This document shows, piece by piece, positions 47,927 through 50,096 of a stretch of 64,000 nucleotides of DNA (the stretch's first letter is position 1; the number at the start of each line of letters is the position of its first letter). The stretch covers positions 1 through 64,000 of the forward strand of contig MU005983.1 in NCBI GenBank assembly GCA_010093745.1, written 5' to 3'. The stretch comes from Piedraia hortae CBS 480.64. Taxonomy: Eukaryota. Position numbers and translations under genes: made by a program. The notes beneath the pieces were generated by a model that was not told where the DNA came from, searched no databases, and saw only the letters and a list, made by a program, of their open reading frames with translations.

Positions 47927-50096
47927 CTACCAGCGTCTATTGCCTCCCAATGGAGCCGTGTTGCTGCCAGTCCACCCGCCGCCGCCTCCACGTCCCCGTC
48001 CTCCACCGCGACCTCCCCATCCGCGGCCGCCTCCACCGCCGCCGCCGAAGCGAACCATCTCCGCCAGGCGCGGGTCCACCTGCTGCTTAGCCTCAGTGAG
48101 GATATTAACTAGATCGCGCGCCTGTTTCGCATCTGAGATGTGTCAGCATCCATGCTTGGCGCTGATTTGAGCCATGTACTTACTGTCAGTTGTGAAGAGC
48201 GTCACAGCCGTGCCTTTACGTCCAGCACGACCCGTGCGCCCAATACGGTGCACATAGTCCTCCGAGTTATTTGGATAGTCGTAGTTGAGAACATGAGTAA
48301 TGTCCTTGACGTCTGCAAAGTGGGTTAGTACTCTCAACGCAAAAGAGCGTGATCCCCTTAGAAGAGAATGGCTATTCTCTCGCATGCAATGATTTGCTTC
48401 GAGCAAATGCTTTGCCGCGCACATAGACACATGCCCACATGCATGTCCTACCACCATCACGGCCGTAAGCAACGCCGCCAGATCCTTGGAAGTCAGCGCA
48501 GCTATCGAAACCAACGCAGTGGAGTACTTGATACCTGCATCTCTGCCCACTAGCTCAAGCGGGAGACCGTCGATCAGGTAGTGGTGCACGCACGATGTGT
48601 GCGTGGCCACTCAAGTCTCCAAGGATCCTCAAAAGCAAACGAAGACAGCCCTGGGATGGAGGTTATGTGCGGCGCAATGCCAAGAGACTTTCCAAACGGT
48701 AAGGGGGGGAGGGAAGATGTAATCATACCAATGCCGCGAGAAGCCACGTCTGTGGCAACCATAATAGGACTCTTGCCCGTTTTGAATTCGTTTAGTACCC
48801 AATCGCGCTCATTTTGCGCCTTGTCGCCGTGGATCGAAAGAGCTGGCCACCCATCCTTGCGTAGAAAGCGTGTAATCTCGTCTGCTACACGCTTCGTTCC
48901 AGTGAATATAAGAATCTTGTGACTCTTGTCCTCCATGATGCGTTCCATATGTTTGATCATGCGATCACGCTTCTCGAACTCGGAGCATACCTCCACGATC
49001 TGGGTGATGCGATGATTTGCTGCAAGGTCCTGCGAGCCAATATTGACTTGGATGAAGTTGTTCTGGAAATCGGAAGCCAACTGGCGAATTTCCTTTGGCC
49101 AGGTTGCCGACCACATGCAGGTTTGACGGTCTGGACGAATTTGGCTGAGAATCTTGCGTATCTGGGGCTCGAAGCCCATGTCAAGCATGCGATCGGCTTC
49201 GTCCAGAACAAGGTATGTAACCCGGCGCAGGTTCGTCTTTCCGGCCTCCAGCATATCAATGAGACGGCCGGGCGTCGCTATACAGACTTCCACACCTCGA
49301 GCCAGATCGCGAATTTGGCCGCCCTTGGGCACACCGCCGTACACGCACGTGTTCCTAATCTTTGAAGACTTCCCAAACTTGCTAACCTCTTCTTGGATCT
49401 GCACAGCCAGTTCACGCGTTGGAGCCAAGATGAGCACGATGGGGCCATCGCCTGGTGCAAGCAATGGCTGCGCATTGATGTGAACAATGGCAGGCAGACA
49501 GTAAGTCAAAGTCTTGCCAGAGCCCGTTTCGGCAATACCGACAACGTCACGGCCAGACAGAGCCATTGGCCAGCCTTGCGACTGAATTGGTGTCGGTTTC
49601 GAAAACCCCTGCGCCTTCACTTCAGTCATGACATAAGCAGGAAAGCCCGCTTCATCAAACGTCTCAACCGGCTTCGGGACGTCACGCCCCTGGACGGCGA
49701 TTTGGTGCTGGCGACGAAATGCTTCCACTTCGGCTGGCGAACGATCGGCAACCGACGCAGCTTCCTTGTAAAAATCTTTCTCAAACCGGGGGAGCGAATT
49801 GACATCCCACGACAGTTGCTTCAGACCGGCACCGAGGTTGGACATGCGATCTCCGCCGCTGCCACCGTACCCTCCACTGCCGTACCCCCCGCCATAGCCG
49901 CCAGAGCCACCATACCTGCTAACCGAGTCAGCATTATTGCGGCCACCGTTCCAGCACTCATTACTAACCCATTAGAGTAGTCACGACCACTATCGCGGCC
50001 TCCGTAACCACGCGAGCCCCCATTGTCATAGTTGTTGTAGCCACTGCCACTGCGCCCGCCGCCGTAGCCACCTCCGTAGCCATTGCTGTACGACAT
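47927..50096 (-). CDS. DBP2: DEAD-box RNA helicase Dbp2 (p68/DDX5)
   Basis: [42 protein letters not shown] tails. Introns 49968-49919, 48728-48313, 48183-48133. Confidence 0.97.
48313..48728 (-). other. Long (416-nt) structured DBP2 intron
   Basis: GTATGA donor within ..RGI/D.., TACTAAC branch point, CAG acceptor; several perfect inverted repeats inside. Confidence 0.85.

Follow-up and report, generated by a model that had tools for sequence, protein, structure and literature searches.

Intron-dependent autoregulation of the helicase gene DBP2 has been known in yeast since 1995. The DBP2 intron is described as conserved in position and length and as poorly spliced in Saccharomyces cerevisiae, Schizosaccharomyces pombe, and humans (PMC4695336). 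A helicase-dead mutant of S. cerevisiae relieves retention of the intron (PMC4695336, citing Barta and Iggo 1995), and the mechanism of the autoregulation has been called "not fully understood" (PMC12458251). In plants, helicase activity is sensed by a hairpin that lies in an intron of DRH1 and whose helicase-dependent opening leads to noncoding splice forms (bioRxiv 10.64898/2026.01.23.701338). Here, we describe the DBP2 intron found in a stretch of 64,000 nucleotides (nt) from Piedraia hortae CBS 480.64 (GenBank assembly GCA_010093745.1, contig MU005983.1, positions 1 to 64,000; referred to below as the window). This 416-nt intron folds into a long rod of nested helices that enclose a core helix, P3, and a rod with a P3 core occurs at the same site in a family of 16 distinct introns that includes the one in the window.

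The DBP2 intron of S. cerevisiae (Iggo et al. 1991; Barta and Iggo 1995) resembles the intron in the window in several respects: it lies in the orthologous gene at the motif V position, is long for its genome, and is partly retained. The introns at the same site of two loci with Saccharomycotina-type exons (L041 and L072) are also rod-like. The S. cerevisiae intron is ~1 kb in length versus 416 nt in the window, and a defined structure is not mentioned for it in the literature searched. Intronic polyadenylation [poly(A)] sites have been invoked for S. cerevisiae (PMC4191890, PMC12458251), whereas no canonical poly(A) motifs were found in the family described here, and a covariance model of its core (R1, below) finds no P3 core in Saccharomycotina-type loci. 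The similarity to intron 2 of S. pombe dbp2 lies in the gene family and the intron position; inefficient splicing and negative control of the mRNA are observations from S. pombe (PMC4695336). That intron promotes decay via the motif TNAAAC, Mmi1, and the exosome, and no structure is described for it (PMC4695336), whereas TNAAAC is absent from the intron in the window and unenriched in the family.

The plant DEAD motif (DRH1/RH46) is likewise a conserved structure, located in a long intron of a gene that encodes a DDX5-like helicase (PMC12218528; bioRxiv 10.64898/2026.01.23.701338), and it has been shown to sense the activity of its own helicase, with negative feedback via unproductive transcripts (bioRxiv 10.64898/2026.01.23.701338). 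As presented there, it consists of one hairpin of ~20 bp, in which an alternative 3' splice site is concealed, whereas the window has a rod of ~350 nt with many helices, no masked site, and no alternative joint. The plant motif sits in the fourth DRH1 intron and is called plant specific by its authors. A further parallel is provided by the zipper stems of long yeast introns, whose positional definition fits a stem in the window. The yeast stems are reported to be poorly conserved between species (PMC12350175), whereas the family keeps its core helix and its architecture across lineages at ~40% intron identity. In RPL7B, autoregulation inhibits a structural splicing enhancer (PMC12311795); in DBP2, the regulator would be a helicase and not a ribosomal protein. 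The rod with the P3 core has no match in Rfam 15 and no description in the literature searched, mostly at the level of abstracts. Two screens for structured RNAs in fungi mention neither DBP2 nor helicase in their main text; their supplements might list the element. Control of DBP2 by its intron, zipper stems, and, in plants, an intron structure that senses a helicase are already known; the conserved rod with the P3 core appears to be new.

The DBP2 gene of the window and the fold of its intron

Exon 2 of the gene matched the Pfam domains DEAD (8.8e-51) and Helicase_C (2.2e-16), and the top match of the helicase among solved structures was S. cerevisiae Dbp2 (8ark; E value of 8.4e-184, 614 bits), with DDX17 and DDX5 ranking next. 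Judged by these matches, the host gene is a true DBP2/DDX5 orthologue. The focal intron is in phase 1 and, according to the sequence and the splice joint, splits ...ARG(I/L)|D... in helicase motif V; it thus occupies the classic DBP2 position. An earlier reading made from the letters of the window alone (here, the sequence-only reading) had recognized a 416-nt intron at a conserved position of DBP2, and the helicase matches, the phase 1 site in motif V, and a joint of exactly 416 nt bear this out. It had also given 44 to 59 nt as the length of nearly all other introns; this holds for the other two introns of DBP2 (50 and 51 nt), to which the check was confined. The features of the gene are as follows.

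47927..50096, minus strand: DBP2/DDX5-type DEAD-box helicase gene with four exons (open reading frames and sequence)
50096, minus strand: start codon ATG; stop codon at 47927-47929
49919-49968, 48313-48728, and 48133-48183, minus strand: the three DBP2 introns (splice joints in sequencing run X2)
48728..48313, minus strand: focal intron of 416 nt, GUAUGA ... UACUAAC ... CAG (sequence and splice joint)
48723..48728, minus strand: 5' splice site GUAUGA, with A at +6 (sequence)
48698..48717, minus strand: C-rich, G-poor leader CUUCCCUCCCCCCCUUACC, just 3' of the 5' splice site
48324..48330, minus strand: branch-point sequence UACUAAC, with the branch A 12 nt from the 3' splice site
48313..48315, minus strand: 3' splice site CAG (joint in run X2)
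48574..48576, minus strand: in-frame stop on retention of the intron (open reading frame 48574..49971), after 51 intron-encoded codons

In the minimum-free-energy (MFE) fold, the individual details of which are unreliable for RNAs of >400 nt, most of the intron is taken up by nested long-range helices, and both splice sites and the consensus branch point are left unpaired at the base of the rod. The parts of the fold are listed from the outside inward.

48354..48706, minus strand: rod domain of nested long-range helices, intron nt 23 to 375 (MFE fold)
48700..48706, minus strand: 5' strand CCCCUUA of the outermost helix, pairing with UAAGGGG at 48354-48360 (inverted repeat I12 and MFE fold)
48664..48680, minus strand: 5' strand of an outer long-range helix, pairing with 48409-48425 (inverted repeat I1, 17 nt, 82% complementary)
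48617..48628, minus strand: 5' strand of P3, GGAUCCUUGGAG, pairing with 48480-48491 (MFE fold)
48480..48491, minus strand: 3' strand of P3, UUCCAAGGAUCU (MFE fold and comparative support)
48492..48616, minus strand: apical domain inside P3, with three hairpins at intron nt 119-148, 149-197, and 212-233 (MFE fold)

The sense strand of the intron had an MFE of -151 kcal/mol, compared with -135.05 ± 5.38 kcal/mol for dinucleotide shuffles (z score of -2.96; 0 of 100 shuffles were as good), so that the intron, which the sequence-only reading described as densely base-paired, folds better than shuffled sequence. The z score was -2.57 (40 shuffles) and -2.43 (25 shuffles) on repetition, and it reached -4.16 against 20 block-wise shuffles that kept the local composition. 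For the antisense strand, the z score was -0.43, with 30 of 100 shuffles as good, and -0.95 on repetition.

All the helices that had been named in the sequence-only reading were found at their positions by sequence and an inverted-repeat check. The nested one, 48618-48627/48481-48490 (GAUCCUUGG/CCAAGGAUC), is complementary at 10 of 10 positions and corresponds to P3, which comprises 12 bp in the fold (intron nt 101-112/238-249) and spans 148 nt. The outer one, 48664-48671/48418-48425, is part of the 17-nt arm pair and appears in the MFE fold as intron nt 52-55/314-317 and 58-65/304-311. The helices had also been described as mutually compatible; all but one are present together in the MFE fold, the exception being the AGAGAAT/ATTCTCT hairpin, which competes with a long-range helix at intron nt 42-48/347-353. 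The outermost helix (7 bp, nt 23-29/369-375) has a linker of 50 nt and so falls within the positional definition of a zipper stem (PMC12350175); 1 of 20 shuffles had a stem as long.

Conservation of the core helix and the rod

Orthologous introns were collected by scanning metagenome contigs with a degenerate pattern consisting of the end of exon 2 and G|GUNNG. The scan yielded 113 loci (80 with 2-kb flanks and 33 with 300-nt flanks), and in nearly all of them the sequence upstream of an intron at this site encodes the same helicase motif. The intron end and the downstream exon were found in 38 of the 113 loci in a first pass and in more loci by a relaxed search. In the group with flanking exons close to those of the window, the translation of which includes (K/R)(D/N)I(T/S)HV, the introns are 414 to 606 nt long. 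The family comprises the 16 distinct full-length introns of this group, including that of the window, plus duplicates and partial copies; we take it to be of filamentous-ascomycete type. The intron in the window had no significant similarity by blastn to the other 37 extracted introns, and pairwise identities of the introns in MAFFT alignments were 36 to 45%.

P3 was present in all 16 independently calculated MFE folds, with a span of 118 to 170 nt. Its arms occur in variants that keep the pairing (GUCUUGGA/UCCAAGAC, GUGUCUUC/GAGGACAC, GAUCGGGA/UCCCGAUU, and AUCUCGGG/CCCGAGGU), the last of which, from locus L015, is the most diverged. A partial relative has the arms AACCCAGA/UCUGAGUU, with 7 of 8 positions paired. 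RNAalifold run on a plain MAFFT alignment (A2) returned P3 alone, with 3 of 8 pairs changed on both sides. Across the nine P3 pairs in A2, 84.7% of the alignment cells can pair, compared with 27 to 61% when the partner is slid by 1 to 3 columns. Cells with a double change numbered 15 versus 6.9 ± 2.4 in column shuffles (0 of 500 shuffles), and the covariation score was 0.340 versus 0.243 (1 of 500 shuffles). Two other counts for P3 in A2, the pairs with a double change (3 versus 3.0 shuffled) and the further pair types (13 versus 12.8), were not above those of the shuffles.

With the window left out, 15 full and 2 partial orthologous cores (17 in all) were combined in a covariance model (R1), which was used to search both strands of the 64-kb window. 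The best match lay at the core of the intron.

48473..48629, minus strand: R1 match, 13.2 bits, E value of 0.042 (rough to about five-fold either way), full model 1-161, P3 and its neighboring hairpin both being in the expected alignment

The runner-up (493-624, minus strand; 7.8 bits, E value of 0.93, partial) is taken as a chance match. The members used for training scored 31 to 91 bits, compared with 13.2 bits for the window. Over 94 sources, R1 matched only the filamentous-ascomycete-type group, including a held-out partial copy (L096; E value of 3.7e-4), and gave no match in Saccharomycotina-type, basidiomycete-type, or other loci. In the alignment fitted by R1, which leans towards the structure, 81% of the cells pair, 30 cells have a double change versus 16.2 ± 3.3 in shuffles (0 of 500), and compensatory changes occur in 9 of 19 pairs. 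The plain and the model-fitted alignments thus agree that the nested helix pointed out in the sequence-only reading is kept with compensatory changes among orthologous DBP2 introns. The hairpin next to the 3' strand of P3 aligns to a hairpin of R1. As read from the MFE helix lists, the apical domain measures ~105 to 150 nt in the family and has three hairpins in 13 introns and one long arm in the other 3. Full-length MAFFT alignments (A1 and A2) support P3 only, and the other helices are comparable only within subgroups. In four alignable subgroups, RNAalifold gave the same nested plan with some compensatory pairs; recurrent helices in the subgroups were GCGUGA/UCACGC, GUGC..CUCUC/GAGAG..GCAU, and GGUCC/GGACC.

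The rod was measured on MFE folds by the number of long-range pairs (span greater than a quarter of the length) and by the maximum nesting depth. The folds of the family have 6 to 10 nested long-range helices that lead from near the intron ends to P3. Long-range pairs were 1.4- to 2.7-fold above the mean of dinucleotide shuffles in each of the 16 introns, and their number was reached by 0 to 4 of 25 shuffles (in the window, 68 versus 34.4; 1 of 25). Nesting depths were 81 to 112 versus 50 to 63 for shuffles (in the window, 92 versus 52.3; 0 of 25). Among 22 random 416-nt segments of the window, the maxima were 42 long-range pairs and a depth of 68. With shuffling confined to blocks of 40 nt, the long-range-pair count was reached by 0 of 20 shuffles in five of six introns (0 of 20 for the window) and by 1 of 20 in the sixth. 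A composition gradient as the source of the rod is ruled out by the block-wise shuffles and the natural segments of the window. The sense z score was below the antisense z score in 16 of 16 introns (means of -3.09 and -0.88), an asymmetry that fits many G-U pairs and a constraint at the RNA level. When the linker of the zipper-stem definition was relaxed to 42 to 150 nt, stems of 8 to 21 bp were found in 15 of the 16 introns, compared with a shuffle mean of 3.65 bp.

We take the fold to be real, sense-strand specific, and maintained by selection, since compensatory changes preserve the nested helix in introns that cannot otherwise be aligned and the rod is found in all 16 of them. It is very probably a conserved functional RNA structure.

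Outside the family, introns at the same site were rod-like in the two Saccharomycotina-type loci (L041 and L072) and in L021 and L031. Neither rod measure was reached by any of 20 shuffles for L041, L072, and L031, and 1 of 20 shuffles reached one for L021; each of the four introns exceeded all 6 same-length natural segments of its own locus. The introns of the plant-type L054 and the unplaced L026 were rod-like in comparison with shuffles, and those of L064, L036, and L044 were less so. Four metazoan-type introns (L029, L057, L003, and L032) and that of L005 were not rod-like, and a pan-eukaryotic rod is not supported by these five. To judge from few sequences of tentative placement, the rod may be a general fungal feature of the DBP2 intron, with the P3 core specific to one group.

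Splice signals and unspliced RNA

The splice signals of the family are conserved in a form that is partly weak. GTATGA stands at the 5' end of 13 of the 16 introns, and GUAUGA is presumably a suboptimal 5' splice site for fungi. AAG is the 3' splice site in 15 of the 16 introns, the window alone having CAG, and CTAAC or CTAAT occupies the place of the branch point in all 16. The leader (intron nt 9 to 60) contains 33 to 62% C, versus 24 to 31% over the whole intron, and 4 to 19% G in all 16 introns (40% C and 17% G in the window).

Two arrangements of splice signals were peculiar to single loci or small sets of loci. In L018 (L018:1548-2005, minus strand), the 5' splice site GUAUGAUU (intron nt 1-8) is fully complementary to GAUCAUAC (nt 420-427), just upstream of the branch point, and its unpaired probability is 0.01, versus 0.35 in shuffles; among the orthologues, only L018 has a clearly sequestered 5' splice site. 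In L014, L048, and L002, a branch-point-like element followed by AG (ACUUACAGUGCAG, ACUCACAGUGCAG, and CUUGAACUGCAG, respectively) lies 3' of the P3 5' strand, at the junction with the next helix. The window lacks this element, which is similar to the alternative 3' splice site that the plant DEAD motif masks.

Two sequencing runs cover the window: X1, a DNA run that is possibly the source of the window, and X2, for which RNA status was guessed. Contigs of X2 contain GT..AG joints at all three DBP2 introns, and the focal joint, with a depth of 1105, skips exactly 416 nt. A 475-nt contig of X2 with a depth of 310 contains the whole intron and ~30 nt of each exon; because it has both exon flanks, it represents unspliced pre-mRNA and not an excised product. 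The contig across the junction of intron 3 (depth, 2217) is unbranched, which argues against carryover of genomic DNA and against comparable retention of intron 3. We put the unspliced share at roughly a fifth to a quarter of the transcripts, an estimate that comes from a single run presumed to be RNA and from contig depths, which are a crude measure. No contig ends or loose ends were seen inside the intron in X2, although contigs cannot show RNA ends. As stated in the sequence-only reading, retention leads from exon 2 through the intron to a stop codon, the last base of which is 48574.

Possible roles of the rod

DBP2/DDX5 helicases are central to the assembly of messenger ribonucleoproteins, and their dosage matters. 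The reading that we prefer, with about as much doubt as belief, is that the intron in the window is the local member of a conserved structured DBP2 intron family in fungi of filamentous-ascomycete type and acts in autoregulation. The parts of this reading are held to different degrees. The element is likely a cis-regulator of DBP2 expression; that the rod is directly remodelled by Dbp2 is a tentative proposal, suggested by analogy. The sequence-only reading had put forward a folded element sensed or unwound by Dbp2 or, instead, an intron-encoded noncoding RNA (ncRNA). What stands of it is a folded, sense-specific, and selected element in DBP2 that is partly retained, and the ncRNA found no support, for reasons set out below.

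In the mechanism we envisage, the rod would compact the 416-nt intron and thereby allow its removal by a spliceosome that normally deals with introns of ~50 nt. The short helices of the rod (4 to 14 bp) would be of a size that a nonprocessive DEAD-box helicase can open, and since there are many of them, the rod would be a natural substrate for such an enzyme. Abundant Dbp2 would loosen the rod, so that splicing at the weak sites would fail; the unspliced RNA would run into the stop 51 codons into the intron and be lost, and the outcome would be negative feedback on the Dbp2 level. We infer the three main steps, namely, promotion of splicing by the rod, its remodelling by Dbp2, and degradation of the unspliced RNA. 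For the sensing or unwinding of the rod by Dbp2, the models are S. cerevisiae (PMC4695336) and the plant DEAD motif (bioRxiv 10.64898/2026.01.23.701338). The supposed direction, in which high Dbp2 levels would lower splicing, fits the cases of the yeast helicase-dead mutant and plant DRH1.

Four other explanations were weighed. In the first, which we regard as unlikely, the rod is a structural splicing aid only, that is, an extended zipper stem that compacts a long intron, with retention resulting from the weak sites and with no action of Dbp2 on the rod. The position of the outermost helix in the window, the relaxed stems in 15 of 16 introns, and the accessibility of the splice signals agree with it, and structured long introns and zipper stems are described as common in S. 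cerevisiae (PMC12350175). [quoted passage not shown]

Less likely still is a decay or processing signal, in which the duplex or the C-rich leader would mark unspliced pre-mRNA for nuclear decay, cleavage by RNase III or Dicer, or premature 3'-end formation. Its analogues are the Mmi1-bound dbp2 intron 2 of S. pombe and the intronic poly(A) sites of S. cerevisiae, both of which are mechanisms described for DBP2 introns (PMC4695336, PMC4191890, PMC12458251). A rod of ~100 nested pairs would be a plausible substrate for a double-strand-specific nuclease, and unspliced RNA is present, as a minority. However, TNAAAC occurs 6 times over the 16 introns versus 5.5 expected (0 in the window), AATAAA or TATATA occurs in none of the 16, and the X2 contigs, which cannot show RNA ends, do not end inside the intron.

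A stable ncRNA encoded in the intron (a small nucleolar RNA [snoRNA], a microRNA-like RNA, or another kind) and released after splicing is very improbable. Many fungal snoRNAs are intronic, and a conserved structured core with three apical hairpins would suit such a product. However, no Rfam 15 family was found in 13 orthologous loci at E values of up to 1 or, at E values of up to 10, in the region of the window, where the only matches over 47800-50200 were two chance ones outside the intron. The C-box RUGAUGA occurs 3 times in the 16 introns and not in that of the window, C/D boxes are not conserved, and CUGA is absent after the single C-like box in the window. The intron-bearing contig is pre-mRNA, with both exon flanks. 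The least credible explanation, a neutral long intron with chance pairing or a relic of an inverted-repeat insertion, can appeal to the unreliable details of MFE folds above 400 nt and to weak z scores in 4 of 16 introns but is at odds with the compensatory changes in P3 in otherwise unalignable introns, a rod that is above shuffles in 16 of 16 introns and, in the window, above all 22 natural segments, a strand asymmetry in 16 of 16, and lengths held at 414 to 606 nt.

Several results weigh against autoregulation through the rod. The proposed link between Dbp2 and the structure is an analogy. The RNA status of X2 is a guess, contig depth gauges level poorly, and no alternative splice joint inside the intron was present among the X2 contigs. 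Splice-site accessibility in the orthologues is like that of shuffles: mean unpaired probabilities, natural versus shuffled, were 0.51 and 0.47 for the 5' splice site, 0.66 and 0.53 for the branch point, and 0.71 and 0.76 for the 3' splice site, values that rule out splice-site masking of the plant kind. Bringing the intron ends together is likewise nothing special to the natural fold, since the 5' splice site-to-branch point distance in the MFE fold was not below that of shuffles (35 in the window versus a shuffle median of 17.5; at or below the median in only 3 of 14 introns). The strict zipper-stem definition fits only 7 of the 16 introns. The energy z scores are weak (-0.3 to -1.4) in 4 of the 16 orthologues, although the rod measures of these four still exceed those of shuffles. 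On the comparative side, the 16 introns represent about six lineages and are not independent, R1 matches the window at a marginal E value, and alignment between the window and the others is limited to P3 and one hairpin. The outer helices of the window, including 48664-48671/48418-48425, are without comparative support, as the set contains no close relative.

Autoregulation through the rod lends itself to experiment, since the conserved structure can be mutated at defined places: the core helix, for which natural compensatory variants exist, the weak splice sites, and the C-rich leader. Such mutants would make it possible to ask if the folding of its own pre-mRNA tells a DEAD-box helicase how active it is. 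If so, fungi would have an equivalent of the plant DEAD motif, which would suggest that helicase-sensing introns arose or persisted in more than one kingdom. A wider version, in which the DBP2 intron would be a helicase dosimeter across fungi, with the integrity of the rod setting the splicing of Dbp2's own pre-mRNA, is more doubtful; if true, it would explain the intron-dependent autoregulation of DBP2 described 30 years ago.

Minor observations were made on the gene and on individual loci. In the window, the depth of X2 jumps to ~9000 at 47927-48080, over the Gly/Arg-rich C-terminal coding region, most likely because of low-complexity words shared with other transcripts and not because of a change in expression. 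In the region of the DEAD motif (49156-49215), several contigs of X1 and X2 have loose ends confined to a stretch of 40 to 60 nt; these contigs probably represent paralogous DEAD-box genes or other organisms that share conserved words. In the loci with a 606-nt intron (L042:330-528 and L080:1221-1419; exon 3 at ~1639-1700 of L080), the downstream exon reads NYD*P, with an in-frame TAG where others have Tyr. The TAG is present in two independent contigs and could reflect a pseudogene, an assembly error common to both, or variation between strains. An extra short intron splits exon 3 inside N(F/Y)D|YP in L015 (L015:2443-2540) and in L019. The L088 intron, at the same site, starts with GUGAGU, and in its first 305 nt a tandem GGCUUUGGCU(C/A)... 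repeat replaces the usual 5' half of the rod. Seven loci with GEFKAG(R/H) exons (L006, L010, L027, L062, L065, L066, and L070), presumably of basidiomycete type, have an intron at the same site, and no further exon is recognizable before NYDFPNN; in these loci, the DV.D..V. segment must either have diverged or occupy a small exon of its own.

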